A DNA stretch of 64,000 nucleotides, taken from contig JBEKDT010000008.1 in NCBI GenBank assembly GCA_050014195.1, forward strand, positions 96,001 through 160,000, read 5' to 3'. Shown piece by piece: positions 40,060 through 64,000 of the stretch (its first letter is position 1; every line of letters starts with the position of its first letter). Origin of the DNA: Desulfomonilia bacterium (GTDB lineage: Bacteria; Desulfobacterota; Desulfomonilia; UBA1062). Position numbers and translations under genes: made by a program. Below the pieces are notes generated by a model. It saw only the letters and a list, made by a program, of their open reading frames with translations, was not told the DNA's origin and ran no database searches.

Positions 40060-40064
40060 AGGCC

Positions 40065-41144: not shown

Positions 41145-41146
41145 CC

Positions 41147-46863: not shown

Positions 46864-46867
46864 CGTC

Positions 46868-47311: not shown

Positions 47312-47318
47312 CGCTTAC

Positions 47319-47348
47319 CCCCACAAATATGACACTTATTGACACTTT
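47319..47348 (-). promoter_or_regulatory. Putative MraZ operator (three GTG-core direct repeats)
   Basis: Minus strand AAAGTGTC-AA-TAAGTGTC-ATA-TTTGTGGG, 10-11 bp period, just upstream of mraZ; TTGACT-N16-TATATA lies immediately upstream. Confidence 0.7.
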
Positions 47349-47509
47349 ATGCCTATATATTAAATGGTATATTAAAGTCAACATGAAGTTTCACTATTTT
47401 GTTAGTCTTTTATTATGAAATATCAAAATATTAAATGAATACCAAGGCTATGAAAAAAGTGCCATGTTAGGGAGAGATTTCGCTGGAAGTTTTGAGGGGA
47501 CTTGGCTAT

Positions 47510-48505: not shown

Positions 48506-48559
48506 GGTGATGCTGATAATATAACTTTTATACCCAAACAAAATTTAAGGAGGTTGTGA

Positions 48560-49273
48560 ATGCCATTACTGACATCCACTGCATATGCAGCGACAGCCCA
48601 GTTCAGGGGTAATATCGGGGCCATGATCGTGGATGCTGCCCCTGTGGTTAAACTCGTGTTACTGGTCCTCTTCATATTTTCCATATTCTCATGGGGTATC
48701 ATTATTCAGAAGTGGATCATGTTTACCAGGGCCCGCAAGAGGGCGAAGGTGATACTGGACATGATTGCCAAGAGCCCAAGCATGGTGAAGCTCAAGGAGA
48801 CCATTGCAAAGGCTGGTGATTGTCCCGTGTCTAAGATGTTCGATGAGGCCCTTGATGAGGTGAATAAACTCTCAGGCAGGACGGGCATGGTCAATCAGTC
48901 CATGCTTATAAACATCGAGGCCAGGTTGGGCAATGCCCACGCACGGCAGGGCATGGACCTTTCCTACGGTCTGGGTTTCCTGGCAAGCATCAGTAACGCA
49001 AGTCCCTTTATCGGACTGTTCGGGACCGTTTGGGGAATCATGGATTCCTTCAGACATATCGCACTCATGGGCTCCGCGAATCTTGCAACCGTCGCCCCAG
49101 GTATATCCGAGGCCCTGATCGCCACTGCCGCAGGACTCTTTGTCGCAATACCGGCCGTGCTCTTCTATAACTACTTTACGAGCCTCATCACCCATGCGAG
49201 CGCCCAGATGGACCAGTTCCAGATGGACTTCATTAACTCTCTGCGCCGGGGGTTGTTCCATGCAGACAAATAA
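48560..49273 (+). CDS. tolQ: TolQ (MotA/TolQ/ExbB family)
   Basis: SPFIGLFGTVWGIM, VAPGISEALIATAAGLFVAIPA. Confidence 0.94.
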   Translation: MPLLTSTAYAATAQFRGNIGAMIVDAAPVVKLVLLVLFIFSIFSWGIIIQKWIMFTRARKRAKVILDMIAKSPSMVKLKETIAKAGDCPVSKMFDEALDEVNKLSGRTGMVNQSMLINIEARLGNAHARQGMDLSYGLGFLASISNASPFIGLFGTVWGIMDSFRHIALMGSANLATVAPGISEALIATAAGLFVAIPAVLFYNYFTSLITHASAQMDQFQMDFINSLRRGLFHADK

Positions 49274-49664
49274 GCCCAAGACGTATGTGGCGGAAATCAA
49301 TGTGACGCCGCTGGTTGATGTCATGCTCGTGCTGCTCATCATCTTCATGGTATCGGCCCCCATGATGAAGGAAGGCATGAAGGTTGATCTGCCCGAGGCG
49401 GAGGCGCGGGCTTTGGGCGAGAGCCAGGATCTTGTGATCACCATAGGCAATGACAAGACCGTTGATATCAACGGATCACCGGTTGAACTCGGCAGGTTGG
49501 AGATGGTCCTCAGCCAGATCAAGGAACAGAGGAATGTAGAGGCCGTCTACCTGCAGGCCGACAAAAGTATCCCATACGGATTTGTAGTCCAGGTGATGTC
49601 GGTCATACGCATGAGCGGTCTGACGAAGATCGGCCTTGTGACCCAGCCTCCGGCAAATAAATAA
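49260..49664 (+). CDS. tolR: TolR (ExbD/TolR family)
   Basis: Start ATG 49260; EINVTPLVDVMLVLLIIFMV, ADKSIPYG. Confidence 0.94.
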   Translation: MQTNKPKTYVAEINVTPLVDVMLVLLIIFMVSAPMMKEGMKVDLPEAEARALGESQDLVITIGNDKTVDINGSPVELGRLEMVLSQIKEQRNVEAVYLQADKSIPYGFVVQVMSVIRMSGLTKIGLVTQPPANK

Positions 49665-49672
49665 GAGCCAGG

Positions 49673-50386
49673 ATGCAGTCTTTAAGAAACTTCCTTATCT
49701 TATCGCTCATCTGTCATCTGGTGTTGATCCTTACCCTGGTGGATATCGATCTTTCCGGAAAGAAATTAGACACCTCAGACGTGTATGAGGTATCAATCAT
49801 TCCCGGTGTCCCCTCGGGCGGAGAGGCTGCATCGAAGAGCGTTTCCATACCCGAGAGCAAGAAATTCATTTTCAACAAGAAGTCCGAACATGTCTCACTC
49901 GGAGAGGTCAAGAAGGAGAGAGCCTTGAAAGAAGGCCCTCCCAAACTCTCGCCCCTGGAAATGAAGCGGGAGACCCCCGAAGAGGGAGGCCCGGTTACAG
50001 CGAGTGCAGGTAATCTGACCAGGCCCCCGGTACAGACCGGTATGGGTACGGGAACGGCCCATGGCCCTGGAGGAGGGAGTGCTTCAGAGATCGCCCTGTG
50101 GAAAGCACGGGTCAGGAGCTTGGTGGAGAACTTGTGGAAAACCCCTCCGGAGATCGAGGGAATGGATTCATCATTACAGACCACCTATCTTCTCAGGGTG
50201 AGCAGGACAGGTGATCTGCTCCAGAAGAAACTCATGGTATCATCGGGCAATGTGCCCTTTGACCGATCGATACTCATTACCCTGGGCAGGGTGAGCCGAT
50301 TACCACAGCCTCCGCTCGTCCTCATTGCAGGCGAGGACTGGTTTGAGTTCACCATGTCTTTCACACCCCCGAAAGGAGCTCATTGA
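49673..50386 (+). CDS. tolA: TolA/TonB-like energy transducer
   Basis: TM helix with S..CH motif, low-complexity linker, SSGNVPFDRS C-terminal domain; between tolR and tolB. Confidence 0.8.
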   Translation: MQSLRNFLILSLICHLVLILTLVDIDLSGKKLDTSDVYEVSIIPGVPSGGEAASKSVSIPESKKFIFNKKSEHVSLGEVKKERALKEGPPKLSPLEMKRETPEEGGPVTASAGNLTRPPVQTGMGTGTAHGPGGGSASEIALWKARVRSLVENLWKTPPEIEGMDSSLQTTYLLRVSRTGDLLQKKLMVSSGNVPFDRSILITLGRVSRLPQPPLVLIAGEDWFEFTMSFTPPKGAH

Positions 50387-51660
50387 TGCGAAGATTCTTT
50401 GCCCTTATTTTTGTAATTTTTATCATTTCCGACATACATGTACATGCCCAGCAGATCCACATCGACATCGAGGCGAGCGGATTCCGCAAGATGAAGGTTG
50501 CCATGCCTACCTATGCCGGGCCCGGTGACATGGCGGGCTCGGTGTGGGCCATGTGCGCCAGGGACCTCCAGCTGTCAGGGATCTTCGATCTCATCTCGCC
50601 CCAGAGCTATGTCAATCCGGGCCCCCTTGGCGAAGTCCAGCAGGGTTCACTGAAGGACTTCTCGCTCATCGGTTCGGATTATGTGATAGCCGCTACGGTT
50701 TCAAAGCAGGACACCACAGGCATATTCAAGGTCCAGATGGTGGATGTTTCTACAGGGCAGGTCATCGAGAGCGCCACCTACACGAGCGGCGAGCAGACCA
50801 TGTACATGGCTGTCCATGCGTTCATGGATCACGTCTTGAGGAATAAGTTCGGACTAGACCCCATCTTTTCCTCCAAGATCGCATGCATAAAAAAAGATAA
50901 AACGGCTAAACAGCTCCATGTCATATGGTGCGATGGAACCGGAGGCAATACCATACGTGGCGGCGGCAGCCTTGTACTGAGCCCTGCATGGTCGCGTGAC
51001 GGGAAAAAGATCGCATTCGTATCCTACTGGAAAAACAACCCGGACCTCTACCTGCTGGATCTTGCCACGAACAATGTAAAACAGCTCTCGGCGCAGAAAG
51101 GCATCAACACATCACCTGCCTTCGATGCGTCAGGCGGCAGGATAGGGCTCACGTTGTCCATCGACGGTTCACCCAAGATCTATATCATGAACCTGGACGG
51201 CTCAGGCAGGACAAAACTCACCACAGGCTGGGCAACCGATACCTCGCCATCATTCTCGATCAATGGAAAGAGCATGGCCTACTGCTCATCCCGGTCGGGT
51301 AACCCCCAGATCTTCATCATGGATCTTGCAACGAAGAATGTGCAGCGGCTTACCTATGAGGGAAAATACAACTCCGAACCGACCTTCTCACCGAGGGGAG
51401 ATCTCGTGGCATTTTCCTATCGTGCTAAAAATGAAAAGTTTTATATTGCGACTATAAAACCTGACGGGTCGAATTTCCGGGTGCTTCCAGGGTCGGGCCT
51501 TGGAGATGAATCACCGAGTTTTTCTCCCGACGGGAGACTCATTGCCTTTGCCGGTGGAGACGGTAATATCCACATAACGGATCTCATGGGTACCATGTCC
51601 GTGCCTGTCACCTCTGGGGGAGGGTTTTCCGAGCCGGCCTGGTCGCCGTTGATGAAATGA
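50386..51660 (+). CDS. tolB: TolB beta-propeller protein
   Basis: Signal peptide, RDLQLSG, repeated SPAWS/SPSFSPDG PD40-like units. Confidence 0.92.
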   Translation: MRRFFALIFVIFIISDIHVHAQQIHIDIEASGFRKMKVAMPTYAGPGDMAGSVWAMCARDLQLSGIFDLISPQSYVNPGPLGEVQQGSLKDFSLIGSDYVIAATVSKQDTTGIFKVQMVDVSTGQVIESATYTSGEQTMYMAVHAFMDHVLRNKFGLDPIFSSKIACIKKDKTAKQLHVIWCDGTGGNTIRGGGSLVLSPAWSRDGKKIAFVSYWKNNPDLYLLDLATNNVKQLSAQKGINTSPAFDASGGRIGLTLSIDGSPKIYIMNLDGSGRTKLTTGWATDTSPSFSINGKSMAYCSSRSGNPQIFIMDLATKNVQRLTYEGKYNSEPTFSPRGDLVAFSYRAKNEKFYIATIKPDGSNFRVLPGSGLGDESPSFSPDGRLIAFAGGDGNIHITDLMGTMSVPVTSGGGFSEPAWSPLMK

Positions 51661-51673
51661 GAAATCTTTGAAC

Positions 51674-51701
51674 TTGACCTGACTCAGGGTTGGATTACAG
51701 T
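51674..51701 (+). promoter_or_regulatory. Possible sigma70 promoter for pal
   Basis: TTGACC-N16-TACAGT upstream of the GGAGAGGAG RBS. Confidence 0.45.
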
Positions 51702-51734
51702 ACAAACAACTCCAAGAGTGGAGAGGAGAATGAT

Positions 51735-52307
51735 ATGAAGAGAATTATTCGTATTGCATATACCATCATAATACTCTGTGCGATCCTGTTCGTCATGGGT
51801 TGTGCGAAGAAGACCCTGGAACCGGTAACTCCGGAAGTTTCAAAGCCGCATCCTCCCGGCCAGACGGGAATGCCTGCCGAGCAGCCTGGCATGAAGATGG
51901 ATACGTCCGAGGCATCTCAGGGTGCTGGAGCCGCTTCGGGCAAGTCCACGATTGAGAAGGCTCGGACCGCCTTTGAAAAAACGGATATATACTTTGAGTT
52001 CGACAGTTTCGAGCTCACGCCGGAGGCCCGGAAGGCACTGGCCGATAAGGCTGCTTTCCTGAACTCACATCCTAAGATCAAGACCCGCATCGAAGGCCAC
52101 TGTGACGAGCGGGGCACGGCAGCATACAACCTTGCCCTGGGGGAGCGCCGTGCCAAGGCTGCTCAGGACTATCTTGTTTTCCTGGGTATAGGCTCGGAAA
52201 GGGTTTCAACGGTCAGTTACGGTGAAGAGAAGCCGGTGGATCCGGGGCATAACGAAACGGCCTGGGCCAAAAACAGAAGGGCCCATTTCGACATTCTTGG
52301 GGAGTAA
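51735..52307 (+). CDS. pal: Peptidoglycan-associated lipoprotein Pal
   Basis: Lipobox VMGC, IYFEFD, EGHCDERG..YNLALGERRA, SYGEEKP, KNRR. Confidence 0.96.
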   Translation: MKRIIRIAYTIIILCAILFVMGCAKKTLEPVTPEVSKPHPPGQTGMPAEQPGMKMDTSEASQGAGAASGKSTIEKARTAFEKTDIYFEFDSFELTPEARKALADKAAFLNSHPKIKTRIEGHCDERGTAAYNLALGERRAKAAQDYLVFLGIGSERVSTVSYGEEKPVDPGHNETAWAKNRRAHFDILGE

Positions 52308-52312
52308 TAATC

Positions 52313-53041
52313 ATGAGACGATCTATCCTATTTATCTTATTGCTGATCATATCCGGTTGTGCAACTCAGCAGGATCTCAATGCCCTCAAGAGTCAGGTGG
52401 ATATGCTCCAATCCCGCCAGAGTATGGCCGAGAAGAAGACGGCGGAAATCTCCAAGCTCACGGACCAGTCCCTTAAGCAGCAGGGCGAGTTGCAGAATCG
52501 GTATTCTGAGCTGCAGAATCAGATGTTCACGCTCCAGGGGTCCATCGACCAGATCTCGGCATCTGCAGGGCTTACTTCGGCCGGTGGAGGCGAGACCAAG
52601 ATATCCAAGCTGGAAAAGGATGTCCAGTCCCTCAAGGACCAGCTTCAGAACAAGGGGACTGCTCCTGCCCAGAATTCGCTCTATGACAGCGGCATGGAAA
52701 AATTCAAGGCCGGGATGTTCAGCGATGCGGTCCAGGACTTCAAAGGCTTTCTTGCCCAGAATCCCGACCCGGCACTCGCCGGTAATGCCTACTTCTACAT
52801 GGGAGAGTCCCTCTATGCCCTGGGCAAGTATGATGACGGTATCTTAAGCTATGATACGGTAGTAAAGAAGTTCAAGGACAGCGATAAAGTGCCTGATGCC
52901 CTCTATAAACAAGGGCTGTCGTTCATGAAGATGGGAGACAACGAGACCGGTACGCTGATCCTGCAGCAGCTCATAAAAGAGCACCCCAAGACCGATGCCG
53001 CAAAGAAGGCCAAAAAGGCATTGAAAAACCCTCCTGCTTAG
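52313..53041 (+). CDS. cpoB: Tol-pal protein CpoB/YbgF
   Basis: Lipobox ISGC, coiled coil, C-terminal TPR (NAYFYMGE, KVPDALYK); follows pal. Confidence 0.9.
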   Translation: MRRSILFILLLIISGCATQQDLNALKSQVDMLQSRQSMAEKKTAEISKLTDQSLKQQGELQNRYSELQNQMFTLQGSIDQISASAGLTSAGGGETKISKLEKDVQSLKDQLQNKGTAPAQNSLYDSGMEKFKAGMFSDAVQDFKGFLAQNPDPALAGNAYFYMGESLYALGKYDDGILSYDTVVKKFKDSDKVPDALYKQGLSFMKMGDNETGTLILQQLIKEHPKTDAAKKAKKALKNPPA

Positions 53042-53112
53042 AAAGGGATGATGGTCTTTGACCTGTAATATGTTTTGCATCGAGAAAATCGTAAATGGAG
53101 AAAGGGGTTTTC

Positions 53113-55665
53113 ATGAAGATCAGATCATTTAGAGTGATTCCCACACTTCCTGAGATGCTTAATCCCATCCTGTCACTTGCATACAATATCTGGTATTGCT
53201 GGAACCACAAAGGTCTGCGTCTCTTTCAGCACATGGACAGAGACCTCTGGGAGGAGACGGGCCACAATCCCGTGGATATGCTCTCCCGTATCTCGCAGGG
53301 CCGCATCATGGACCTCATGGAAGACGAAGGATTCCTCTCCCAGATGAAGAAGACCTACGAGGAATTCGAGGACTACATCGCAGAGAAGGGGGTATATTCC
53401 TTCCTCCTGGCCCAACCCATTGACTTTACGATAGCCTATTTTTCCATGGAATTCGGCCTCACCGAGAGCCTGCCCATCTACTCGGGAGGGTTAGGTGTGC
53501 TGGCCGGCGACCATTTGAAGAGCGCCAGCGACTTGAGGCTGCCTCTCTACGGGGTTGGCCTCATGTACAAGCATGGATACTTCACCCAGTACTTGAGCTG
53601 GGACGGCTGGCAACAGGAGGAATCACCGGATAATGACTTCTATCATATGGCCCTTATGCTGGAACAGAAAGACAGTGGAAAGCCCATCAAGATCTCATTG
53701 AAGCTCGCAGACAGGGAATGCCGGGCACAGATTTGGAAATGCCAGGTGGGCAGGGTGCCGCTGTACTTACTGGACACCAATCTGGAGGAGAACCATCCTG
53801 ACGAGCGAAATATCACGGGTGGGCTCTATGCGGGCAACCAGGAGGACAGGCTCAGGCAGGAGATCCTTTTGGGCATCGGCGGCATGAGGGCACTGGATGC
53901 CCTGGGCATCGATCCCATGGTGTACCACATGAACGAAGGGCACAGCTTTCTCGTCGGATTAGAGCGCATCCGTAACCTCATGAAGATTAAGAACATGGAT
54001 TTCAACACCGCCCGCGAGGTGGTGAGGGCATCGTTCGTCTTCACCACGCACACACCGGTCCCTGCAGGCAATGACGTCTTTGAGATGGGGCTCATGGAAA
54101 AATATCTCAAGCCCTATGTGGATGACACGGGGATCAAGTGGTCTGACTTTCTCGCGCTCGGCAGGAAGAACCCTTACGACGACAAGGAAGGTTTTGGTGC
54201 CACGGTATTCGCACTCAAGAATTCCGCCTTTCGCAATGGGGTAAGCAAACTCCACGGCCAGGTCTCAAGGGATATGTGGAGGGACATCTGGCCGCACGTC
54301 AAGACAGAGGATGTGCCTATCTCTTCTATTACCAACGGCATCCATATCCCTTCATGGATCTCAGACGAGATGGCCGAGCTCTTCGACCGGTACCTCGGCC
54401 CCAAATGGAAGGAAGACCCGGACAATCAAAAGGTTTGGGAACGGATCGACGAAATACCCGATGCCGAGCTGTGGTCCACACATCAGCGGCGCAGGGAGAG
54501 GCTGGTTGCCTTTGCGCGTAAAAGGCTCATGAAGCAGCTTGCCACACGAGGTGCCAAGCCGAAGGATATCCAAAGGGCCATGGAGACTCTGCATCCTGAT
54601 GCACTGACCATCGGATATGCCCGGCGCTTTGCCACATACAAGCGCGGTCTCCTTATCTTCAGGGACATCGATCGCCTTAAGGCCATCCTGGCCAACCGCG
54701 AGCTTCCGGTACAGCTCATCGTGGCAGGCAAGGCGCATCCCAGAGATCACGAGGGCAAGACCATCATCCAGAAGATCATCCACATCGCACGCGAGGAGCC
54801 TTTCAGAGACAAGATCGTGTTCCTTGAGGATTATAATATGAATATAACACGTTACCTCGTGGAGGGCGTGGATGTGTGGCTCAACAACCCTAGACGACCC
54901 TTTGAGGCTTGCGGTACATCGGGCATGAAGGCTACTGCAAACGGCGCGCTCAACTTGAGCGTTCAGGACGGCTGGTGGGTGGAGGGATATCACCCCGATC
55001 TCGGTTGGTCCATTGGAAACGGCGAGGTCTACGACAACTACGACTATCAGGATCAGGTTGAGAGCAAGGCCATCTACGATCTGCTGGAGCGCGAGATTAT
55101 CCCGTTGTTCTATGAACGCGGTCTCGACGGACTGCCCAGAGGCTGGATCACCATGATGAAGAAATCCATGCGCAGCTTATGTCCTGTATTCAATTCCAAC
55201 CGCATGGTTGAGGAATACACGGACAGGTGCTATATGGCCGCAGCCCTGAACGTGAAGACTTTAATGGGTGACAATTTCAAGAACGTACGCCAGGTGGTCA
55301 AGTGGAAGGACACATTGACATCGCGCTGGAGCGATGTGACGGTGCAGGACATCAGTCATGAGGGGGGGGACGAGGTCGCGGTGCACAGCGACATAACGAT
55401 CCGCGCCGAGGTGAAGCTTGGCGCCATCAACCCGTATGACGTCAGCGTACGGGTATACTACGGGAACATCGATGATGCCGGTAACCTCAATGGGGCAAAG
55501 GATGTGATGATGGATCACATCAAGGAGCTCGGCAAGGGTGTCCATGTCTTTGAGGCCCGCATCACGTGCGATGATACGGGCAGGTTCGGGTATTCCGTGA
55601 GGATACTGCCGTCCCATACGAATCTCATCTACCCGGTGGATATGGGTTTGATTTGCTGGGCGTGA
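53113..55665 (+). CDS. glgP: Alpha-glucan (glycogen) phosphorylase
   Basis: YFSMEFG, YSGGLGVLAGDH, HMNEGH, RRFATYKR, EACGTSGMK (PLP lysine). Confidence 0.96.
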   Translation: MKIRSFRVIPTLPEMLNPILSLAYNIWYCWNHKGLRLFQHMDRDLWEETGHNPVDMLSRISQGRIMDLMEDEGFLSQMKKTYEEFEDYIAEKGVYSFLLAQPIDFTIAYFSMEFGLTESLPIYSGGLGVLAGDHLKSASDLRLPLYGVGLMYKHGYFTQYLSWDGWQQEESPDNDFYHMALMLEQKDSGKPIKISLKLADRECRAQIWKCQVGRVPLYLLDTNLEENHPDERNITGGLYAGNQEDRLRQEILLGIGGMRALDALGIDPMVYHMNEGHSFLVGLERIRNLMKIKNMDFNTAREVVRASFVFTTHTPVPAGNDVFEMGLMEKYLKPYVDDTGIKWSDFLALGRKNPYDDKEGFGATVFALKNSAFRNGVSKLHGQVSRDMWRDIWPHVKTEDVPISSITNGIHIPSWISDEMAELFDRYLGPKWKEDPDNQKVWERIDEIPDAELWSTHQRRRERLVAFARKRLMKQLATRGAKPKDIQRAMETLHPDALTIGYARRFATYKRGLLIFRDIDRLKAILANRELPVQLIVAGKAHPRDHEGKTIIQKIIHIAREEPFRDKIVFLEDYNMNITRYLVEGVDVWLNNPRRPFEACGTSGMKATANGALNLSVQDGWWVEGYHPDLGWSIGNGEVYDNYDYQDQVESKAIYDLLEREIIPLFYERGLDGLPRGWITMMKKSMRSLCPVFNSNRMVEEYTDRCYMAAALNVKTLMGDNFKNVRQVVKWKDTLTSRWSDVTVQDISHEGGDEVAVHSDITIRAEVKLGAINPYDVSVRVYYGNIDDAGNLNGAKDVMMDHIKELGKGVHVFEARITCDDTGRFGYSVRILPSHTNLIYPVDMGLICWA

Positions 55666-55680
55666 TTGTCATGATGATAT

Positions 55681-55733
55681 GGAGGAGCGGCTTTAGCCGC
55701 GATGAAGTAATCGCGCCTGAAGGCGCTCCTACA
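55681..55733. repeat. REP doublet (REPIN/BIME-like)
   Basis: GGAGGAGCGGCTTTAGCCGCGA-N8-TCGCGCCTGAAGGCGCTCCTACA: two inverted GTAG/GGAG-type REP units, each with an internal hairpin. Confidence 0.8.
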
Positions 55734-55766
55734 AACAATATTCCAGGCTTCTTGGAAGCTTGAGAT

Positions 55767-57203
55767 ATGAGACTGCCCAATCATAAGACCAAGATCGTAT
55801 GTACCATCGGGCCTGCTTCCAGGACTCGTTCCATCATGGAGCGGATGATCATAGCAGGGATGGATATCGCCCGCCTGAATTTTTCTCACGGTGATTTTAA
55901 CTCCCACGAACAGGTGATTAAAGATCTGAGGGCCGCGGCTCAATCTGTAGGAAAGCGACTTACCATCATGGGCGACCTGCCCGGGCCCAAGATGCGTATA
56001 GGGGTTATGGCCCAAGAGCCGGTTGAATTGAGGCCGGGCAATGGCTTTACGCTCACTACCGAAGAGGTAGCGGGTGATGAGAACAGGGTATCGGTGAGCT
56101 TCAAGCGCCTCCCCCAGGCTGTCAAGGCAGGGGATACGCTCTTCTTAAATGATGGGCTCATTGCGCTTGAGGTCACCAGGGTCCAAGAAAGCAATGTGGA
56201 ATGCAAGGTCCTTGTAGGAGGGGAACTGCGCTCCCACAAAGGGCTCAACCTGCCGGGCATCGATCTGGGCATCAGCGCATTCACTCAGCAGGATCATGTA
56301 TGCCTGAGTTTTGCCGCCAGGCAGGGCCTGGATGCGGTCTGTCAATCCTTTGTGATCTCAGGGGCGGATATCCGTGCAGTGCGCGAGGCTGCAGAGGCAA
56401 TCGATTACCATCCTTTCATCATTGCCAAGGTCGAACGATCGGCTGCGCTTGATCACATCGACGATATCCTCGATGCATCAGACGGCATAATGATCGCCAG
56501 GGGAGACCTTGGTGTGGAGATCCCCATCGAGAAGATTGCAATAGTCCAGAAAGAGCTCATGGCGAAAGCGATCATTCGCGGAAAACCGGTTATTACCGCA
56601 ACCCAGATGCTTGAATCCATGACGGAAAACCGCAGACCCACACGGGCCGAGGTGACGGACGTGACAAATGCCATACTGGACGGCACCGATTGCGTCATGC
56701 TCTCGGGTGAGTCGGCCATGGGCAAGTATCCTCTAGAGGCTGTAGAGATGCTCGGCAGGATTGCTTCGGTTACCGAGCCGTACGGTCCCGGATATCGTCT
56801 GAGGGAGAGGCTCAGGGAGATCACGGAAATACAGACAAGCAGGATAAGTGATCTGGTTGTGTTCAGCATAGAGGCAATCTTCAAGCATATTTCACCGGCG
56901 GCGGTGTTTGTCCCCACCAACAGCGGGGCCATGGCCAGGAGTATTACACGCTTCAGGCTCCCGGTATGGATTGTTGCCATGAGCAGATCAGAGCTCACGT
57001 GTCAACAACTCCAGTTCTCTTATGGTGTCCAAAGCGCTCAGGAAGCCGAATATCCTGATGATTGGAGGCCTTATGTGAGGTCATGGCTCCATGAGCATGA
57101 GGTGGAAGGGGACATTGCCATCCTCACCCAAGGGCCTTCGAAGAAGCACCCGGAGGCGAATCACCGGATGGAGATCATTGACCTGAAACAAGTACCGGAA
57201 TAA
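55767..57203 (+). CDS. pyk: Pyruvate kinase
   Basis: KTKIVCTIGPAS, RLNFSHG, MIARGDLGVE, ATQMLESM, DCVMLSGESA. Confidence 0.97.
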   Translation: MRLPNHKTKIVCTIGPASRTRSIMERMIIAGMDIARLNFSHGDFNSHEQVIKDLRAAAQSVGKRLTIMGDLPGPKMRIGVMAQEPVELRPGNGFTLTTEEVAGDENRVSVSFKRLPQAVKAGDTLFLNDGLIALEVTRVQESNVECKVLVGGELRSHKGLNLPGIDLGISAFTQQDHVCLSFAARQGLDAVCQSFVISGADIRAVREAAEAIDYHPFIIAKVERSAALDHIDDILDASDGIMIARGDLGVEIPIEKIAIVQKELMAKAIIRGKPVITATQMLESMTENRRPTRAEVTDVTNAILDGTDCVMLSGESAMGKYPLEAVEMLGRIASVTEPYGPGYRLRERLREITEIQTSRISDLVVFSIEAIFKHISPAAVFVPTNSGAMARSITRFRLPVWIVAMSRSELTCQQLQFSYGVQSAQEAEYPDDWRPYVRSWLHEHEVEGDIAILTQGPSKKHPEANHRMEIIDLKQVPE

Positions 57204-57232: not shown

Positions 57233-57317
<85 letters not shown>

Positions 57318-57347: not shown

Positions 57348-58454
57348 TCATCTCTTAAACCCCCTGATAACCGAGAGTGTGCCCAAATTGTGCCCATCCT
57401 GTGCCCGTGAGAGTGTCTCGGCGTTCTCCTGATACATGGTTGAAAGCCGCTCGCAAGCTAGCCTGATGTCATCTTCGCTGGTGATATTGTACCGGTCAAA
57501 TACAGCCCTTGTCTTGTGTCCGGAGATCCTCATCGCCACCACTTCAGGAACACCGGCCCGGACCATATTCCGTACCGCAGTACGTCTCAGGTCATGGAAG
57601 AGCCGCCCCTCAAGTTTCACTTTGATAAGCGCTTTCTCCCATGCAGTCCTGAAATCTTTGTTGAACGGCTGCCCGTTATGATGAAAGAAAAACACATTCT
57701 GACACTCCGGGAATCTGGCATCACGGATTTTCTTTTGTGCGAGCAAGACATCAAAAAGCTCACCGAACATGTAAACAACCCGGCCTTCCCCGTTCTTCGT
57801 GCTTCCGGGTTCAAGGATGATCCTGTGATTCCAGATATCGACCTGATGCCACTGAAGATCAAGAAGCTCTCCGCGTCTCATACCCGTATAGTAAGCCGCG
57901 ATCAATAAAGGCTTGAGGTAAGAGGGAAGCGCATCTCTGAGATTTACATACTCGTCGTACTCAAAGAATCCAGTTCGTACGTTGGTTTCTTTCAACTTTG
58001 GGATGTGGGGCATCATTGTCACCTTGGGAGGTGTATGCCGGAACCCAAGGGTAAAAGCCCTCCTGAGAGCGCTTAACTCCCGGTTGATGGTTCCGTTTTT
58101 CATCCCTGCTTTCTGACGGTCAAAGATGTATTGCTGAACATGAGTCGTTGTCACCTTGCAGGCCTTCAGATTGCCGAAGAAATCCCTGAGATGTTCCGTG
58201 CTGTATCGGAGTCGTTCACAAGACTTCCGCTCCATGAGACTATATTCTGCAATAATGTCGTCCAACAGCTCATTAACCATGGTTCGTTCTACCTGAAGCC
58301 CCTGGAAGGTGCCTTGCACGATGCTCCCTTCCCTGAGCTTGAGCAATTTATCCGCATCGGATTTCTTCTTTGAGTGCGCTGACTCCCTGTACGGCTTGCC
58401 GTCCCGATAATACTTGATCCACCAAACTTTTCCTCTTTTATAAGCAGTTCCCAT
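57348..58454 (-). CDS. Tyrosine recombinase/integrase
   Basis: Catalytic residues in TGMRRGEL, STKNG, HDLRR, SGHKT, FDRY; likely start MGTAYKRG after AAGGA RBS. Confidence 0.95.
   Translation of the reverse strand: MGTAYKRGKVWWIKYYRDGKPYRESAHSKKKSDADKLLKLREGSIVQGTFQGLQVERTMVNELLDDIIAEYSLMERKSCERLRYSTEHLRDFFGNLKACKVTTTHVQQYIFDRQKAGMKNGTINRELSALRRAFTLGFRHTPPKVTMMPHIPKLKETNVRTGFFEYDEYVNLRDALPSYLKPLLIAAYYTGMRRGELLDLQWHQVDIWNHRIILEPGSTKNGEGRVVYMFGELFDVLLAQKKIRDARFPECQNVFFFHHNGQPFNKDFRTAWEKALIKVKLEGRLFHDLRRTAVRNMVRAGVPEVVAMRISGHKTRAVFDRYNITSEDDIRLACERLSTMYQENAETLSRAQDGHNLGTLSVIRGFKR
57378..57406. repeat. Three TGTGCCC direct repeats; putative integrase arm-type sites
   Basis: TGTGCCC at 57378, 57389 and 57400 (11-bp period), about 60 bp from the tRNA 3' end. 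Confidence 0.7.
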
Positions 58455-58587
58455 GAACTGATCCTTTCTTTGCCGTGGGCACGGCTTCAGCACTCCTCCT
58501 TTCTCCATGGATTTGAAGTAAAGCCCTGCAATTATCAGGCTTACCCTTCCTCGTAATTATACTACCGGCCACAAAACGAGGAAAGCT

Positions 58588-58788
58588 TCAAAAGGAGAAG
58601 GTAGTTTTCTGCTTCTCAATCCATCTGTCCATGTCGTTAACATCAAGGAGCACGCGCCTTCCATCCCTGATGCAAGGAATCTTCCCTGCCCAGACCATCT
58701 CGCGGATAGCCCAATCCGTTCTTCCCAGGTAAACAGCCGCTTCCGGTATCGAGTACAATCTCTTGGGTGGTCTAATCTTCTCAGTCAT
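58588..58788 (-). CDS. Excisionase-like helix-turn-helix protein
   Basis: 66 aa; RLYSIPEAAVYLG...GKIPCIRDGRRVLLD...DRWIE; upstream of the integrase. Confidence 0.88.
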   Translation of the reverse strand: MTEKIRPPKRLYSIPEAAVYLGRTDWAIREMVWAGKIPCIRDGRRVLLDVNDMDRWIEKQKTTFSF

Positions 58789-59102
58789 ACAATTACCCAA
58801 TTTGTTCATGACTCGGATGGATTCACTGTTATGAGATTTGGGGAACAATCATTGTAGAACTGGGACTTTTTCCAATGAGTAAAACCACCCATGAACGTGT
58901 GTATGCTTACTGCTACAACAAGCAAGTTGATCATGAATTCTTCCTCCTTTGTCTTTAAACATAAAAACCAACTTTTCCTCCCTTGCCCCTTTCGCAAATG
59001 ATTGAAGGGGAAGGGAGGAACGACCGGAGAAAGGGAAGCCAGAAAGGCTCACCATATAGGAGTGGTTACAAAATGTGACCATAGGAGACCCCGAAGCGCT
59101 GC

Positions 59103-59177
59103 AAGCAGCATGACAACATGTTTACATGTTGGCGTGCTGCTTCTGAGCAAGCGGAGGGGGCTTATTTTGTTACTATA
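59103..59177 (+). other. Long hairpin followed by rolling-circle nick-site-like sequence
   Basis: 19-nt arms at 59103-59121 and 59124-59142 (17/19 complementary), then CTTATTTTGTTACTATA at 59161-59177. Confidence 0.45.
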
Positions 59178-59308
59178 ACCAGTAGAACTTAATGTCTTTT
59201 AAGCATATTAGTGTGAAAGTATTGACAGGTTCTAAATTTTGTAACAGATATTCAAGCATATTTAAAAAAGAGGATAAGAAGTGGTTTATTTAAGGGGATG
59301 AATAGCGA

Positions 59309-62300
59309 ATGACACACCCTAATGATAGAACGTTTGCAGATGTTATTGAATCAATAAAAAATCTCTACAGAGGTTATTCTATTGAAGATATAGCAACAAC
59401 TCTTTTTGTATCTCATCTCTGGTTACCCAATATCGCGAGTCCAGTGAAACATATTTTGTTTTCCATGATTCTTTGTTCCTTGAAGCCGGATGAATATGCA
59501 AAAACTTCAGCTATAAATAATTATTCAGAATTTCAGGAATTTTTGAATAAGCTATACATCCTAGCTCCTGACTTCATTATGCTGGAAGATTATGTTCCAG
59601 AATTGGACTGGGGAGAAGTTAAATTTCAACTTAATGAAAAAAGGTATCATATCTTTTATGGTTGTGACCTTTCTAATGTATTTGATTATCTCACTTTATT
59701 TCAGATTCTCTATGAACCAGTTGATCAAAAGTACATGGAATTAGCACATCGCTCTCCAATGAATGAATTAAAATCTATATTGTCAATACAGGACCAGATT
59801 ATAACAAGCATTTCATCCCAGCCAGATAGAAATGGGCTAACAGTATCACCCGGAGAGACAGGTATTCCATCCGAATCCTTTTGGAACGAAGCAGTTCATG
59901 TATATAAATTGCTCAACTTTGAAGAAATCGCCGGAAAAGATTTTCTTGAGAATTTCAGTATAAAATCGGGTGAATTACCTCCAGTGATTTTATCTGAAGA
60001 GAAATTCGGAGATGCTGTTGCAGATGACCGTACATTCCCTAATATTTTCGTTGAGCTTGATGGCAGACATTTCCTGATCTTACCAAGAAGAATGTCCGGG
60101 GTTCTTTTCGATACTTGGGGAGAATTATTAGAAAGATATCGAGCATCTATTATAAAGCAAGGAAGGCTTCTTGAAGTGTCAGTCGCAGGCGGATTCTGCC
60201 GATTTGTAAAGGAACGATTTTCAGAAGAGGTCTCACTACTGTTTGTATCAGCTCGTTCTGGAGAAAATACAGCGCATGAAATAATTTTTCCAGTAGTGAT
60301 AAAATCAAGGGATAAGCTAGTCCTCTTTTATATCCTACCCCCGTCTGAAGATGGGGAAGTTATAACTAGCTTACTTGCTGATATTTCCCCTAAGCTGAAG
60401 GAAGCAATTCAATTTCTTAAACAACCACCTACCCAGTTGATCATGCACCTCAAAAACCAGCTGGTCGAATTCCGTTCTGATAAAGAAGACGATGCTTTGA
60501 CCCCAGAGCTTTTCATACTCATCCCTCAAACGTACACTGGTCCGTTTTTAATTAAGTTGAAAGAAGAACCGCCCGGGAGAGTGCAATACATGGATTCCAT
60601 GCTCGCTATTCTTGATGAACTTTATAAGGTTGATGAACTTTCTGACTTTCTTGAGTATTTGGAGGAAATTGAGAAATCTTTTATGTCACCCCTAACTTCG
60701 TTACTCGATAAGTTCGCATCTTATAAAGATATGCATGGAGTTTTAATTGGTGGTGCTTTAACTCCCAACATGGTGATGATCGACCCCCATTGGGGTAGTC
60801 GTTTTCGATATGAGTCGCTAGCCAAGTTTTGGAGTCTTTATCCTGAGAGAGGTCTCTTTGGCAATCCACGCAGTTGGCAAATAATAAAGGAGGGTCCACG
60901 GAGGATTAGGTTAGCAGCAAGGTCATATTTTGGTTCTACACTTCATTTTAAAATAGGTAAGGTTCATGCCTTCTTTACAGCTCCATTTGATAAAATGTCA
61001 TTTGAACAGGGATATATCTCTAACTTCTTGATGGAGTGCGCTGAAGATAATTTATATCAATATAAAGATGTTATTGGAGTACATAGAGTTTTTGAGAAAA
61101 ATCAGGAGATCCTTGTCCTATTCTTTCCCTTTTCTCTTGTAAATATGAATACTGAATTTAAGCACTTATGGCACCTTAGTGCTGAAACAACAGCCTGGTG
61201 TGCTGATGTAAGTATCCTAGATACATTGACCATTGGTGTGAGAATTGTCTTCAATGAAGAAATAATCAGGCAATCTTTTTTGGAAATTCAGGATCGATCT
61301 ATGGAGGCTGCATTACTATTGGAGATTATGCGCAAAATTGATTCCCGTTGCCATGATCCAAAGATAAAGGGCATTATAGATATTATTGAGAAAGGGAAAA
61401 CAGGAAAACCAAGATTCATGTTCTTCACCGAAAAAATGCCGGCATCTTTTCCGGAGCTGATCAAGCCATGTCAACCTTTGCCACATCATTTCAAACTTGC
61501 GAAGAAACGACTTGCAGAATTAGCAATGCTTGCGGGCTTACCAGAGGGCAAGTACGATCTTGCTACTGCAAAAGACAAGCTGAATGTTCTGCGTAAGGAG
61601 GTGTTCACAGAGATCAACAAGATAGTGAAGGAGTTTAACTTTGAAAGTTCGATTCCAAAAATAATCGGCTGGGCGGATGCAATTTTGGATCGACGAGAAC
61701 GTGAGAGGATGACTATCGAGCATTCACTTGAACATGATGTGGATTACAACCGGGAAGAGCTCTATTCAAAGAATGAAGAGGATTACCTTCGAATACATCG
61801 TAGCTATCGTTATTTAATTGAGAAATTTGTTCAACTCCAGCCAGCCGGGAAGCAAGTCATTTCGGAAGAACAGGCTTGCCGTCTCCTTGCTTTCATTGAT
61901 TGGTTTTTTGTGATTATCCAAGCAAGCGACATTATACATTATGACATCAACCCAGTAGGTCTTACTATCGATCAAGATTTTCTAATTGAGGTTGAGTATA
62001 GTGAAGACATAAATGAAAAGGAAACCCAATTCGCTCAGGAACAAGCTCAGTTACGACTTGGGATTATTGGTAACACGAAGGATGCAATTAAATATCCCAA
62101 ATTTATTAAAGAGCAGATGCCAGAATTGGATGAAGCTTTTCACAAGGACTATGGATTCAGATTTACTAACCTCATTAGTGTAATGATTATGCTAACTCAT
62201 TGGCCAGAACATGCTGAGGCGGTTGTTGTAGCGCCGAGTTATTCTGCTACAAAAGATGAAATCGCAGTAGTTGCACAAAAAGCCATTGATAGCATTGGGA

Positions 62301-63079
62301 TTGAAGAGATCGACCCTATACTTGATTTTTTAACGCTTAAAAGTGATGAAGTATTAAGAGTGCTCAATGATGAACATCCATGCGATGATTTACCTGTATG
62401 GGAACACAAAAAACGCTTCGCACGCTATACAATAAGGCCATTAATAAAAAAAGATCAGAAATATATATGGGGTCCATATGCAACCCGTGGTGCAGGAATC
62501 ATCTGGTCAGGCTCTCCATCATCTGGTACTTTACCCATAGATATTGATAAGAAGAATATCGATCTCCTCATACAGAAATGGAAGCAACTTCTTGATAATG
62601 AGGTCGAAGTTAAAGCAGCCGAGATTGTAAAGAGATTCACGATGCATGTAATTCCTAGCGCAAAACTTCATCGTTTGGATAAGGCTGGTAATCATCCTAA
62701 GGATTTGGGAGATTATGACGTACTAGCATTTTACCCTCAAGCAAATACTATTCTCAATATTGAATGTAAAAATATTCTACCTGTCTATTGCATCAAGGAT
62801 GCGAAGACTCTGAGAGAAACAATTTTTGGAATACCGGGTAAAGATGAGGGGCATTTTCGTCAGATTAATAAACGACAGAAATATCTTATGGATCATTGGG
62901 CTACAATAGCAAGGGCTTTCAATTGGCCACTTGATCTAGAAAAACCCCCAAGAATTTTATCTCTATACGTGACACCGACTACATATTGGTGGACTCGATA
63001 TCCACCTCATAAAGTAAATACAACTTTTGTGCAAATTGAAATGCTAATGAACTTTATCGAAGGACTATCAGATAATTAA
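59309..63079 (+). CDS. Large hypothetical protein with C-terminal PD-(D/E)XK-like nuclease motif
   Basis: 1256-aa intact AT-rich ORF; AAGGGG RBS; GDYDVLAF...LNIECK near the C-terminus. Confidence 0.85.
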   Translation: MTHPNDRTFADVIESIKNLYRGYSIEDIATTLFVSHLWLPNIASPVKHILFSMILCSLKPDEYAKTSAINNYSEFQEFLNKLYILAPDFIMLEDYVPELDWGEVKFQLNEKRYHIFYGCDLSNVFDYLTLFQILYEPVDQKYMELAHRSPMNELKSILSIQDQIITSISSQPDRNGLTVSPGETGIPSESFWNEAVHVYKLLNFEEIAGKDFLENFSIKSGELPPVILSEEKFGDAVADDRTFPNIFVELDGRHFLILPRRMSGVLFDTWGELLERYRASIIKQGRLLEVSVAGGFCRFVKERFSEEVSLLFVSARSGENTAHEIIFPVVIKSRDKLVLFYILPPSEDGEVITSLLADISPKLKEAIQFLKQPPTQLIMHLKNQLVEFRSDKEDDALTPELFILIPQTYTGPFLIKLKEEPPGRVQYMDSMLAILDELYKVDELSDFLEYLEEIEKSFMSPLTSLLDKFASYKDMHGVLIGGALTPNMVMIDPHWGSRFRYESLAKFWSLYPERGLFGNPRSWQIIKEGPRRIRLAARSYFGSTLHFKIGKVHAFFTAPFDKMSFEQGYISNFLMECAEDNLYQYKDVIGVHRVFEKNQEILVLFFPFSLVNMNTEFKHLWHLSAETTAWCADVSILDTLTIGVRIVFNEEIIRQSFLEIQDRSMEAALLLEIMRKIDSRCHDPKIKGIIDIIEKGKTGKPRFMFFTEKMPASFPELIKPCQPLPHHFKLAKKRLAELAMLAGLPEGKYDLATAKDKLNVLRKEVFTEINKIVKEFNFESSIPKIIGWADAILDRRERERMTIEHSLEHDVDYNREELYSKNEEDYLRIHRSYRYLIEKFVQLQPAGKQVISEEQACRLLAFIDWFFVIIQASDIIHYDINPVGLTIDQDFLIEVEYSEDINEKETQFAQEQAQLRLGIIGNTKDAIKYPKFIKEQMPELDEAFHKDYGFRFTNLISVMIMLTHWPEHAEAVVVAPSYSATKDEIAVVAQKAIDSIGIEEIDPILDFLTLKSDEVLRVLNDEHPCDDLPVWEHKKRFARYTIRPLIKKDQKYIWGPYATRGAGIIWSGSPSSGTLPIDIDKKNIDLLIQKWKQLLDNEVEVKAAEIVKRFTMHVIPSAKLHRLDKAGNHPKDLGDYDVLAFYPQANTILNIECKNILPVYCIKDAKTLRETIFGIPGKDEGHFRQINKRQKYLMDHWATIARAFNWPLDLEKPPRILSLYVTPTTYWWTRYPPHKVNTTFVQIEMLMNFIEGLSDN

Positions 63080-63325
63080 ACTCGGAATTGGGTCTCAAGG
63101 AATAGTAGTGGAGCAATAAAAGGAAATTAATTTTTCTGTTGTATCTCACATTCATAAATAATATAAGTACAAGTATTGAAATGTTTTAATTTGTGTGAGG
63201 TTGGATGTCAAACGAGAGCTTTCCATGGTTTTCCTTTATCCCGGTAGTACATCGGGACCTGATGTAAAGTACGAGGCTACCTCCATGCACGAGCAGACCG
63301 AAGGGCTAAATACTTTACGAAGGAA

Positions 63326-63354
63326 AGGCGCACTTCCGCGTCGGTACCGACGTG
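63326..63354 (-). other. MOBQ-type origin of transfer (oriT)
   Basis: Minus strand: palindrome CGTCGGTACCGACG followed by GGAAGTGCGCCTT, resembling the RSF1010-family AAGTGCG^CCCT nick region; about 35 bp upstream of the relaxase. Confidence 0.75.
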
Positions 63355-63388
63355 TGCGAGTGCTGAAGACATAAGCAGGATAAGGTAG

Positions 63389-64000
63389 ATGGCGAACTAT
63401 CACCTCACCATAAAGCATATCTCAAGATCGACAGGACGAAGCGCTGTTTCAGCGGCAGCGTACCGGTCACGAGAGAAGCTCTATGATGAACGGCAAGGCA
63501 TAACATTCGACTATACAAAGAAGAAAGACCTTGCCCATGCAGAAATAATCCTCCCGGAAAACGCTCCGGAGAGATGGAAAGACCGGGAGACCCTCTGGAA
63601 CGAAGTGGAGAGATCGGAAAAGAGAAAAGACTCCCGGCTTTCACGGGAAGTTGAAGTAGCCCTTCCCAAAGAACTGAACCTCGAACAGCAGATTGCACTG
63701 GTACGGGAATATGTACAGACCCAGTTCGTGGATAAGGGAATGGCAGCCGATATCTGCATTCATGAAAAAGAAAAGAACCCCCATGCCCATATCATGCTTA
63801 CCCTGAGAGAGATTTCAGAAGAAGGTTTTGGCAAAAAAGTGAGATCCTGGGATGATAAAATCAATATCTATACCTGGAGAGAACAATGGGCCGTCGTCCA
63901 GAACCGGCACCTGCTTCAAGCTGGTTATGACATTCAGGTTGACCACAGAAGCTTTGTAGATAGGGACATAGATCTTGAACCACAAATTAAAATCGGGATA
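63389..64000 (+). CDS. mobA: MobA/MobL (MOBQ) relaxase, truncated by window end
   Basis: Translated by hand (absent from the ORF track): MANYHLTIKHISRSTGRSAVSAAAYRS...LWNEVE..EKRKDSRLSREVEVALPKEL...IH...NPHAHIMLT...VDHRS. Confidence 0.95.
   Translation, partial: MANYHLTIKHISRSTGRSAVSAAAYRSREKLYDERQGITFDYTKKKDLAHAEIILPENAPERWKDRETLWNEVERSEKRKDSRLSREVEVALPKELNLEQQIALVREYVQTQFVDKGMAADICIHEKEKNPHAHIMLTLREISEEGFGKKVRSWDDKINIYTWREQWAVVQNRHLLQAGYDIQVDHRSFVDRDIDLEPQIKIGI

Follow-up and report, generated by a model that had tools for sequence, protein, structure and literature searches.

A 1256-residue island protein of a Desulfomonilia bacterium assigned to the PbUpx-type clade of the Upx defence family

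What is the 1256-residue protein encoded between the integration and mobilization genes of a Desulfomonilia island, and what might it do there? The gene, which we call P0001, lies in a window of 64,000 nt (contig JBEKDT010000008.1, positions 96,001 to 160,000 of the forward strand; coordinates below are those of the window unless stated otherwise). An initial annotation, made from the letters and their translations, had proposed an undescribed orphan protein acting as a single-gene anti-phage system, with an infection sensor joined to a nuclease. We find that P0001 is a defence gene of an already described kind, the one-protein system Upx. We put at about 0.88 the probability that it is a full-length Upx member in a deep clade that contains PbUpx, with a mechanism taken from published homologs.

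The gene and its island

The features on which the argument draws are as follows.

57233..57317, + strand: tRNA-Leu gene (ARAGORN); its 3' 53 nt (57265-57317) form attL
57348..58508, - strand: tyrosine recombinase, the island integrase, 386 aa (Pfam Phage_integrase, E 4.6e-19)
58588..58848, - strand: small HTH_17 DNA-binding protein, Xis/AlpA-like, 86 aa (Pfam HTH_17, E 5e-10)
59309..63079, + strand: P0001, assigned as an Upx-family single-protein anti-phage sensor-nuclease, 1256 aa (ORF check, profile and tree)
59309..61408, + strand: N-terminal and middle region of P0001, aa 1-700, putative sensor body (AF2 and Foldseek)
61406..63076, + strand: C-terminal domain of P0001, aa 700-1256, with the PD-(D/E)xK nuclease core at its end (AF2 and Foldseek)
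62708..62770, + strand: catalytic motif GD-x-D ... E-x-K (D1137, E1152, K1154), aligned to PDB entry 9wuf
63389..64000, + strand: 5' part of a relaxase gene, MobA/MobL (MobQ-type); 968 aa when complete, extending past the window end

P0001 had been described as a very long, intact and AT-rich ORF, and the ORF check and GC profile bear this out: the frame is intact from an ATG start, and GC content is 0.365-0.409 across 59000-62999, as against 0.487-0.554 across 40000-56999. The motif GDYDVLAF-x7-LNIECK, previously placed at about 62708-62770, lies exactly there and corresponds to residues G1134-K1154. A promoter and terminator scan of 58800-63450 gave counts not in excess of those in shuffled sequences, with 15 promoter-like sites as against 14.2 +/- 3.8.

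The gene is cargo of an integrative, mobilizable island of about 28.5 kb at the tRNA-Leu gene. The 53-nt 3' end of the tRNA gene recurs as an exact direct repeat at contig positions 181779-181831, about 28.5 kb downstream and beyond the window, and a second, degenerate copy (50/60 nt) lies 4.4 kb past the exact repeat. The recombinase gives weak matches to XerC/XerD-type NCBIfam models, under their cut-offs, and the HTH_17 protein, judging from its position beside the integrase, is a putative excisionase. The relaxase is matched by Pfam MobA_MobL (E 1.4e-75) and, above cut-off, by NCBIfam MobQ (E 5e-81); its full ORF also has AAA_30 and TraI-type helicase domains. P0001 had been called the only cargo between xis and oriT. 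The Xis/AlpA-like gene and the relaxase do flank it, but a search of 63060-63400 gave one imperfect 9-nt inverted repeat (63248-63266) and no identifiable oriT, and the island is larger than the stretch from xis to relaxase, with additional cargo past the window. PADLOC indicated no other defence genes on the island, only cross-matches to the helicase domains of the relaxase, and the P0001 gene was not found in the 14 genomes of the same genus that were searched. Defence genes are usual cargo of mobile islands, and the present island, inserted at a tRNA-Leu site, is a further case in which such a gene is carried together with an integrase and a relaxase.

Relationship to Upx

Upx, a term of Gao et al. 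in 2020, reportedly stands for 'uncharacterised PD-(D/E)xK defence protein'. A word-seeded search for relatives of P0001 scored 8000 candidates, of which 131 reached E <= 0.001; the best 120 of these are 29-63% identical to P0001, with coverage mostly 98-100% of its length. The label 'orphan' is contradicted by these relatives. Using hhalign, we compared a profile built from 47 P0001 relatives (the clade profile) with one built from 37 canonical Upx proteins. The two match with a probability of 99.69% (E 6.8e-26) over 1151 columns, pairing 41-1295 of the clade profile with 31-1274 of the canonical one. P0001 is, like Upx, one polypeptide of the ~1200-1300 aa class, and it is collinear with Upx across the NTD, MD and CTD. 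The clade profile also matches chain 9wuf_A (E 3.9e-12). This chain, a canonical Upx that scores E 0 with the canonical profile, is from the cryo-EM structure of SeUpx from Salmonella enterica NCTC6026 (Zhou et al., 2026, PMC13099982).

Predicted structure points to the same family. AlphaFold modelling with Foldseek comparison, a check suggested in the initial annotation, matched both halves of P0001 to 9wuf. For aa 1-700 (AF2 model with pLDDT 89.2 and pTM 0.89), 9wuf is the only PDB match at E <= 0.001 (E 1.1e-15, TMq 0.51, 800 columns); for aa 700-1256 (pLDDT 91.1, pTM 0.90), it is the top match (E 2.5e-14) and again the only one at that threshold. The next matches of the C-terminal model, at E 0.013-0.4, are the R.BspD6I small subunit, Can2, SduA, FokI and Shedu, all PD-(D/E)xK nucleases, which supports a nuclease fold. 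Moreover, D1137, E1152 and K1154 align with the catalytic residues D1161, E1176 and K1178 of SeUpx, and each is invariant in 47/47 clade members and 37/37 canonical Upx proteins; these are the residues whose mutation in SeUpx abolishes defence (PMC13601566, PMC13099982). The PD-(D/E)XK-like nuclease proposed earlier from the C-terminal motif agrees with both the Foldseek neighbours and this aligned triad. What had been a 1256-aa 'hypothetical protein' can accordingly be annotated as an Upx-family anti-phage sensor-nuclease with D1137, E1152 and K1154 as its catalytic residues.

In a FastTree tree of 85 rows, P0001 falls inside a 48-row clade with PbUpx, and the 37 canonical Upx rows split off with a support of 100. 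Within the clade, P0001 belongs to a 33-row group and PbUpx to a 13-row group. PbUpx, the protein of a Pyrinomonadaceae bacterium (MBP6003660.1; Evans et al., 2026, PMC13601566), was recognised at its locus by eye, its first ~400 residues being identical to the supplement cell for that accession. Across 1256 alignment columns (P0001 aa 15-1254) its identity to P0001 is 32.1%, and the two proteins share the deep clade, the length class of ~1250 aa, the N-terminal hallmarks WLPNI and EDYVPExDWG, and the GDxD...ExK core, in which PbUpx has ESK and P0001 has ECK. SeUpx has the same NTD-MD-CTD architecture and D/E/K triad as P0001, but identity to it is ~15% at profile level and 12-18% in structural alignments. 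Identity of P0001 to experimentally tested homologs is thus low (32% for PbUpx, ~15% at profile level for the SeUpx type). HpUpx, from Hydrobacter penzbergensis (WP_092721551.1), is likewise a divergent member of Upx, yet it retains both defence and terminase sensing (PMC13601566), which indicates that function survives divergence of such size. According to the text of the supplement, HpUpx carries an N-terminal SEC-C zinc motif, which P0001 lacks. A SEC-C motif is present in two members of the P0001 family, P0074 and P0076.

We considered whether P0001 might nonetheless be an undescribed defence protein unrelated to any named system. It has no Pfam and no NCBIfam match, its match to the PADLOC Upx model falls short of significance, and the exact N-termini of P0001 and five close relatives are absent from the supplementary files of Evans et al., all of which would fit such a protein. 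However, P0001 is tied to Upx by full-length profile, structure and tree. In addition, other members of its clade have been published as Upx: the list of Evans et al. (2026, Supplementary Data 5) includes PbUpx and the clade member P0080 (MCU7867432.1), as well as an Elusimicrobiota protein with a P0001-type N-terminus, such that both sub-clades are represented in it. We regard the orphan reading as almost certainly wrong. Since P0001 matches a system already named, an outcome that the initial annotation itself had listed as refuting it, the claim of novelty fails, and 'undescribed' gives way to membership in the Upx family.

Predicted mode of action and competing accounts

Given its place in Upx, we propose that P0001 is a single-gene anti-phage protein with an N-terminal infection sensor and a C-terminal PD-(D/E)xK nuclease; if the published function of the family extends to it, the sensor-plus-nuclease design suggested in the initial annotation was right in kind. 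The two 2026 reports describe phage protection by SeUpx and HpUpx, and loss of both defence and terminase-induced toxicity in the ExK mutant E1176A (PMC13601566, PMC13099982). PbUpx was toxic with 4/37 terminases, all of myophage (CBA120, S13, ACG-2014h and Unknown-1), and the terminase ATPase domain was required; T7 and T4 terminases did not trigger it, and the assay was one of toxicity on terminase co-expression, not of phage defence (Evans et al., 2026, PMC13601566). By extension from these homologs, the N-terminal body of P0001 would bind the ATPase domain of a phage large terminase during infection and may hold it locally unfolded by beta-augmentation, as in the AlphaFold 3 models of the published homolog work. 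Binding would switch on the C-terminal, Mg-dependent nuclease, and the activated nuclease would degrade DNA, such that phage production stops. Searches of the genome from which the window comes with Pfam Terminase_6N, TerL_ATPase and Terminase_3 gave no large-terminase gene. The kind of trigger is common to Upx and the antiviral STAND NTPases Avs1-3, which respond to the large terminase and in many cases carry nuclease effectors (PMC13601566). Unlike these, P0001 has no STAND NTPase, no Walker A motif and no Pfam ATPase match; according to Evans et al., Upx is homologous to Avs neither in sequence nor in structure (PMC13601566), and none of the scanned island ORFs was identified as an Avs gene.

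The two reports name different triggers, a gp16 ejection protein (PMC13099982) or terminase (PMC13601566), and they also differ on whether the outcome is direct immunity or death of the cell (PMC13099982, PMC13601566). In the account of Zhou et al. (2026), the NTD is a second, atypical 3'-5' ssDNA exonuclease, inhibited by the MD and released by a gp16-type ejection protein, such that the cell survives while phage replication intermediates are broken down. Indeed, the SeUpx NTD acts as a nuclease in isolation and is blocked by the MD, gp16 relieves this inhibition in vitro, a D127A/R129A mutant has no defence, and cultures grow at an MOI of 3 (PMC13099982). The acidic motif EDxxPExD near the SeUpx NTD site is, in addition, almost invariant in both clades. 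In P0001 it falls within LEDYVPELDWGE (aa 92-103), a conserved stretch inside the putative sensor body, where E93 is found in 47/47 clade members, D94 in 46/47, E98 in 42/47 and D100 in 46/47. Nonetheless, SeUpx D122 and D127 are not conserved in P0001: mapped by eye from the alignments, Q107, R112 and H114 occupy the positions of SeUpx D122, D127 and R129. The D122 and D127 columns vary widely in the 47-member clade and in the 37 canonical Upx proteins, and of these NTD residues only the basic character at the R129 position is common (43/47 clade members). Because the D122 and D127 columns are variable even in canonical Upx, these three residues do not define the family. A systematic screen by Evans et al. 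also found SeUpx and HpUpx to be triggered by terminase and not by gp16, and HpUpx is active on T4, a phage without gp16 (PMC13601566). We therefore consider it unlikely that P0001 acts as a dual nuclease conferring direct immunity.

An alternative possibility is that this Upx-fold protein serves mainly in competition between mobile elements or in stabilising the island, for example as a sensor of an ATPase from competing plasmids or conjugative elements. Its gene does lie on a mobilizable island, with the integration module on one side and the relaxase on the other, few terminases (4/37) trigger PbUpx, and Evans et al. leave room for non-terminase activators such as other ATPases (PMC13601566). 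Against this, phage terminases elicit a response from all Upx proteins tested, two of which confer phage protection (PMC13601566), homologs adjoin R-M, Gabija and Kiwa genes, with many of them chromosomal and without mobility genes, and carriage of defence genes by mobile islands is commonplace. Such a role strikes us as highly improbable. A further reading holds that the PbUpx-type clade has a trigger range of its own, consisting of certain myophage-type terminases or of non-terminase ATPases of phages or rival elements, such that the island copy could serve the element as much as the host. We see this as a long shot; if it were true, comparing the sensor body with that of SeUpx could show one scaffold re-tuned for different unfolded ATPase cores. 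Our preferred reading remains that of a terminase-sensing Upx with its nuclease in the CTD.

Detection by PADLOC and neighbourhoods of the relatives

The initial annotation held that an empty PADLOC search would support novelty. The Upx model of PADLOC 2.0 (PDLC02221) indeed gives no significant match to P0001 (E 0.016 over 29 residues; E 0.034 in a genome-wide search). The same model matched 12/21 clade members weakly and collinearly, at E 1e-6 to 0.03 (for example, residues 781-1076 against profile positions 764-1069, and 847-1152 against 860-1179), and gave no match to the other 9/21. Evidently, the model derives from the canonical clade. The precomputed Pfam tag PF28173 is present on 66/66 canonical Upx matches and on 3 of the 120 P0001-family proteins listed (the best 120 of 131); a local Pfam search gave no match even for canonical Upx P0122. 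A routine defence-finder run of PADLOC 2.0 vintage would probably report nothing here, wrongly suggesting novelty. Since the model misses the PbUpx-type clade, defence censuses that use it undercount Upx.

Our survey of homolog neighbourhoods took in 13 loci and 128 of 148 ORFs, the other 20, from L031 and L059, being set aside. Matches to PADLOC models at E <= 1e-10 were found for 24/128 ORFs, a count that comes from 13 loci with no control set and is not a measure of enrichment. Type I R-M, Gabija, Kiwa or type IV restriction genes adjoin the homolog in 5-6 of the 13 loci. At one locus (L017), a 1256-aa ORF upstream of the homolog was considered as a second Upx and proved unrelated (hhalign probability 0.2%). 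Upx is a stand-alone gene, and P0001 too has no conserved partner: neighbours differ across the 13 homolog loci, and those of P0001 are the mobility genes of its island.

Assignment of P0001 to the Upx family

The ORF of P0001, the 1256-aa protein under study, is intact, begins with ATG and occupies 59309..63079 (+) of the window. Its GDYDVLAF-x7-LNIECK motif comprises residues G1134-K1154, at exactly the position proposed in the initial annotation (62708-62770). GC content is 0.365-0.409 over 59000-62999 versus 0.487-0.554 over 40000-56999. The following features flank the ORF:

57233-57317, + strand, tRNA-Leu gene
57348-58508, - strand, tyrosine integrase gene
58588-58848, - strand, HTH_17 Xis/AlpA-like gene
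from 63389, downstream of the P0001 ORF, MobA/MobL (MobQ-type) relaxase gene

P0001 had been described as an orphan, but a word-seeded search covering 5.8 billion proteins, with 8000 candidates scored, found 131 relatives at E <= 0.001. Among the 120 of these that were listed, identity to P0001 is 29-63%, with 98-100% of the query covered in most cases, and length is mostly 1235-1300 aa. Relatives are also encoded by 124 stretches in 56 loci of one-genome-per-species contigs, from many bacterial phyla and one archaeal MAG. Closer to the source organism, the P0001 query had no match in 14 genomes of the same genus and four others of the same family (completeness 71-100%), and one genome of the same class has a weak C-terminal match. 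The homolog at L063, from a Candidatus Gracilibacteria MAG, has a frame that is broken after 81 aa (table 11) and a tblastn match that spans the whole protein; the break probably reflects the alternative genetic code of that lineage, and this row was excluded from every alignment.

We conclude that P0001 is a new, unannotated member of Upx, a known and recently well-characterised single-protein anti-phage sensor-nuclease; the proposal of an undescribed defence protein fails, since P0001 matches published Upx by profile, predicted fold and tree. The single PADLOC match of P0001 is a weak one to the Upx model (PDLC02221, E 0.016, residues 1128-1156 on profile positions 1151-1179 of 1271). Twelve of the 21 family members scanned match the same model, always collinearly, at E values of 1e-6 to 0.03, with longer matches at 781-1076 on 764-1069, 847-1152 on 860-1179 and 736-883 on 751-901; no Upx match was obtained for the remaining nine. 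Of 401 same-phylum genomes, three contain strong matches to the model (E 0 to 1e-166). For a canonical Upx set, we translated the full genes of P0122 and P0123 and gathered 66 relatives of P0122, all 66 of which carry a PF28173 tag. In BLASTP comparisons P0001 aligns to P0122 only over its last 240 residues (E 4e-6) and to P0123 over residues 728-1187 (E 0.002); both alignments are collinear and include GDxDVLA...IECK. Alignment by hhalign of 47 P0001-family proteins (A1) with 37 canonical Upx proteins (A2) covers 1151 columns (41-1295 versus 31-1274) at 15% identity, with a probability of 99.69% and an E value of 6.8e-26. The one relevant solved chain found with the A1 profile is 9wuf_A (1272 aa; E 3.9e-12, 743-1160 versus 756-1187), from the entry that Foldseek titles 'Cryo-EM structure of Upx'; the A2 profile matches this chain with an E value of 0.

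The two halves of P0001 were folded separately, using alignments of 39 rows each from genome loci (A3 and A4). For residues 700-1256 (pLDDT 91.1, pTM 0.90), the first Foldseek match in the PDB, and the sole one at E <= 0.001, is 9wuf (E 2.5e-14, probability 1.00, TMq 0.56, 578 columns, 18% identity), followed by the PD-(D/E)xK nucleases R.BspD6I small subunit, Can2, SduA, FokI and Shedu at E values of 0.013-0.4. For residues 1-700 (pLDDT 89.2, pTM 0.89), 9wuf is again the sole match at E <= 0.001 (E 1.1e-15, TMq 0.51, 800 columns, 12% identity). The initial annotation recognised nothing in the ~1100 residues outside the nuclease motif. P0001 has no match in Pfam or NCBIfam. Because both predicted halves match 9wuf, we assign these ~1100 residues to the Upx sensor body.

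Evans et al. (PMC13601566) collected 2093 Upx homologs by PSI-BLAST (895 representatives); the homologs they tested were SeUpx, HpUpx and PbUpx. The supplementary table of that paper includes MCU7867432.1, which is our P0080 and shares 35% identity with P0001 across 99% of its length; an Elusimicrobiota protein with a P0001-type N-terminus (...LWLPNIASPIKH...); and WLPNI-type proteins from Salmonella, Klebsiella and Moraxella. The family accessions HHT9137072.1 and MCK4997872.1 were not found in that table, nor were the N-terminal sequences of P0001 and five of its close relatives found in the paper's supplementary files. PbUpx is encoded at L059, in a Pyrinomonadaceae MAG, whose product matches from an internal Met, by eye, the ~400 printed residues of MBP6003660.1; BLASTP aligns P0001 with PbUpx over 1256 columns (aa 15-1254 versus 7-1247) at 32.1% identity and 646 bits. 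A FastTree tree of 85 rows (47 from A1, 37 from A2 and PbUpx), midpoint-rooted for drawing only, places canonical Upx and a clade of 48 rows on opposite sides of a deep split that has a support of 100 and flagged long branches. Within the 48-row clade, P0001 falls in a 33-row group, and PbUpx and P0080 in a sister group of 13 rows. Among PbUpx-type proteins, P0074 and P0076 have an extra N-terminal SEC-C zinc motif, as in HpUpx, and P0118 carries an extra N-terminal HTH_3/HTH_31 domain.

Active sites and proposed mechanism

The G-D-x-D and E-C-K motifs of the P0001 family align in HMMER with G1158-D1159-I-D1161 and E1176-C-K1178 of 9wuf, and D1137, E1152 and K1154 of P0001 therefore correspond to D1161, E1176 and K1178. 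All three are invariant in the 47 A1 rows and the 37 A2 rows. According to Zhou et al. (PMC13099982), these residues form the CTD active site, and defence is lost in E1176A/K1178A; E1176A removes defence and terminase toxicity alike (Evans et al., PMC13601566). An atypical NTD active site of D122, D127, R129, E147 and D173 has also been reported (Zhou et al., PMC13099982). When mapped by eye through the 9wuf/A2 and hhalign A1/A2 alignments, D122, D127, R129 and D173 become Q107, R112, H114 and D162 in P0001. The D122 column is variable in both clades (most commonly Y/H/F in A1 and W/S in A2), as is the D127 column (N/F/R and N/Q/S), and the R129 column is basic in 43/47 A1 and 28/37 A2 rows. 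Just upstream is an acidic motif that is nearly invariant in both alignments: EDPAED in canonical Upx, and in A1 the P0001 residues E93 (47/47), D94 (46/47), E98 (42/47) and D100 (46/47). P0001 has the Upx features that could be tested, namely collinear architecture, fold, triad, a stand-alone gene and a place among published members, and falls short only in significance against the old PADLOC model and in the NTD residues; the latter are not conserved within Upx, and hence do not define the family.

By analogy with its homologs, the N-terminal body of P0001 would recognise the ATPase domain of a phage large terminase, the core strands of which, going by AlphaFold 3 models of the homologs, would be unfolded and threaded through the sensor by beta-augmentation; toxicity would require the ExK motif. 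P0001 itself has the Upx architecture, with the predicted fold of both halves and, as judged from the alignments, an intact nuclease triad. PbUpx caused at least 1000-fold depletion with four of 37 terminases, all myophage (CBA120, Unknown-1, S13 and ACG-2014h), and none with those of PhiV-1, T7 and T4; the effect was lost on deletion of the terminase ATPase domain and kept on deletion of its nuclease domain (Evans et al., PMC13601566). In the account of Zhou et al. (PMC13099982), Upx is a Mg-dependent 3'-5' exonuclease acting on ssDNA and 3'-tailed structures, which gp16 is proposed to activate and which would confer direct immunity. In the screen of Evans et al. gp16 had no effect, and these authors favour cell death (PMC13601566).

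Neighbourhoods of homologs

By raw count, 24 of 128 ORFs around 13 homolog loci match PADLOC models at E <= 1e-10, as follows:

L013, type I R-M on both sides of the Upx homolog
L027, type I R-M upstream of the Upx homolog
L019, Kiwa, AriA-like ATPase, PDC-S02 and HsdR
L044, Gabija
L057, GajA
L016, methyltransferase and type IV enzyme

Neighbours at L012, L018, L029, L041 and L060 have no PADLOC match at this threshold. Upx seems to be repeatedly inserted into, or located beside, type I R-M loci. In an Ignavibacteria MAG (L013:8714-17114) the homolog lies between the HsdS and HsdR genes, and in an Elusimicrobia MAG (L027:1818-9921) it directly follows HsdR.

The tRNA-Leu island

An exact repeat of the 53-nt 3' end of the tRNA-Leu gene lies at C8:181779-181831 on the contig, and a degenerate copy of the 3' end (50/60 nt) follows 4.4 kb further on; GC content returns to 0.49-0.57 past this second copy. 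The repeats and the return in GC content thus bound an island of ~28.5 kb and a 4.4-kb islet. The island genes include:

int, the HTH_17 gene, Upx and a 968-aa MobA/MobL-AAA_30 relaxase
C8:162955-168957 (L006:12955-18957), + strand, 2000-aa SpvB/FG-GAP/RHS-repeat ORF with a weak C-terminal NlpC/P60 match
PAS hybrid histidine kinase, second integrase and AraC regulator
three short-chain dehydrogenases and an enoyl-CoA hydratase
L007:10700-11378, - strand, RelE-family toxin gene (Pfam RelE, E 4e-42)

The Upx gene had been called the only cargo between xis and oriT. It is indeed the sole gene between the HTH_17 and relaxase genes, but it is not the sole cargo of the island, since RHS-repeat, kinase, dehydrogenase and HTH/RelE genes are also present. 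Just inside attR, at the island's right end, the RelE toxin gene and an HTH_3/MqsA-like antitoxin gene overlap. The 2000-aa ORF resembles an RHS-type polymorphic toxin, and the 199-aa ORF that follows it, with no family match, may be an immunity gene.

The islet (C8:181832-186247; L007:11832-16247), of low GC content and located between the exact and degenerate tRNA-Leu copies, may represent a remnant or another small island carrying cargo of unassigned function. Its ORFs of 463 and 546 aa have no match in Pfam or PADLOC; the 463-aa protein falls in conserved 'hypothetical' clusters, with a weak DUF6236 lead.

The relaxase (gene at 63389-64000 in the window; L006:9389-12295) matches the PADLOC 'DpdH' model with its N-terminus (E 6e-13) and the PDC-S68, RecD-like and AbiO models with its helicase part. 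These matches look like relaxase/helicase-domain cross-hits rather than signs of a defence gene, and could mislead automated defence calls.
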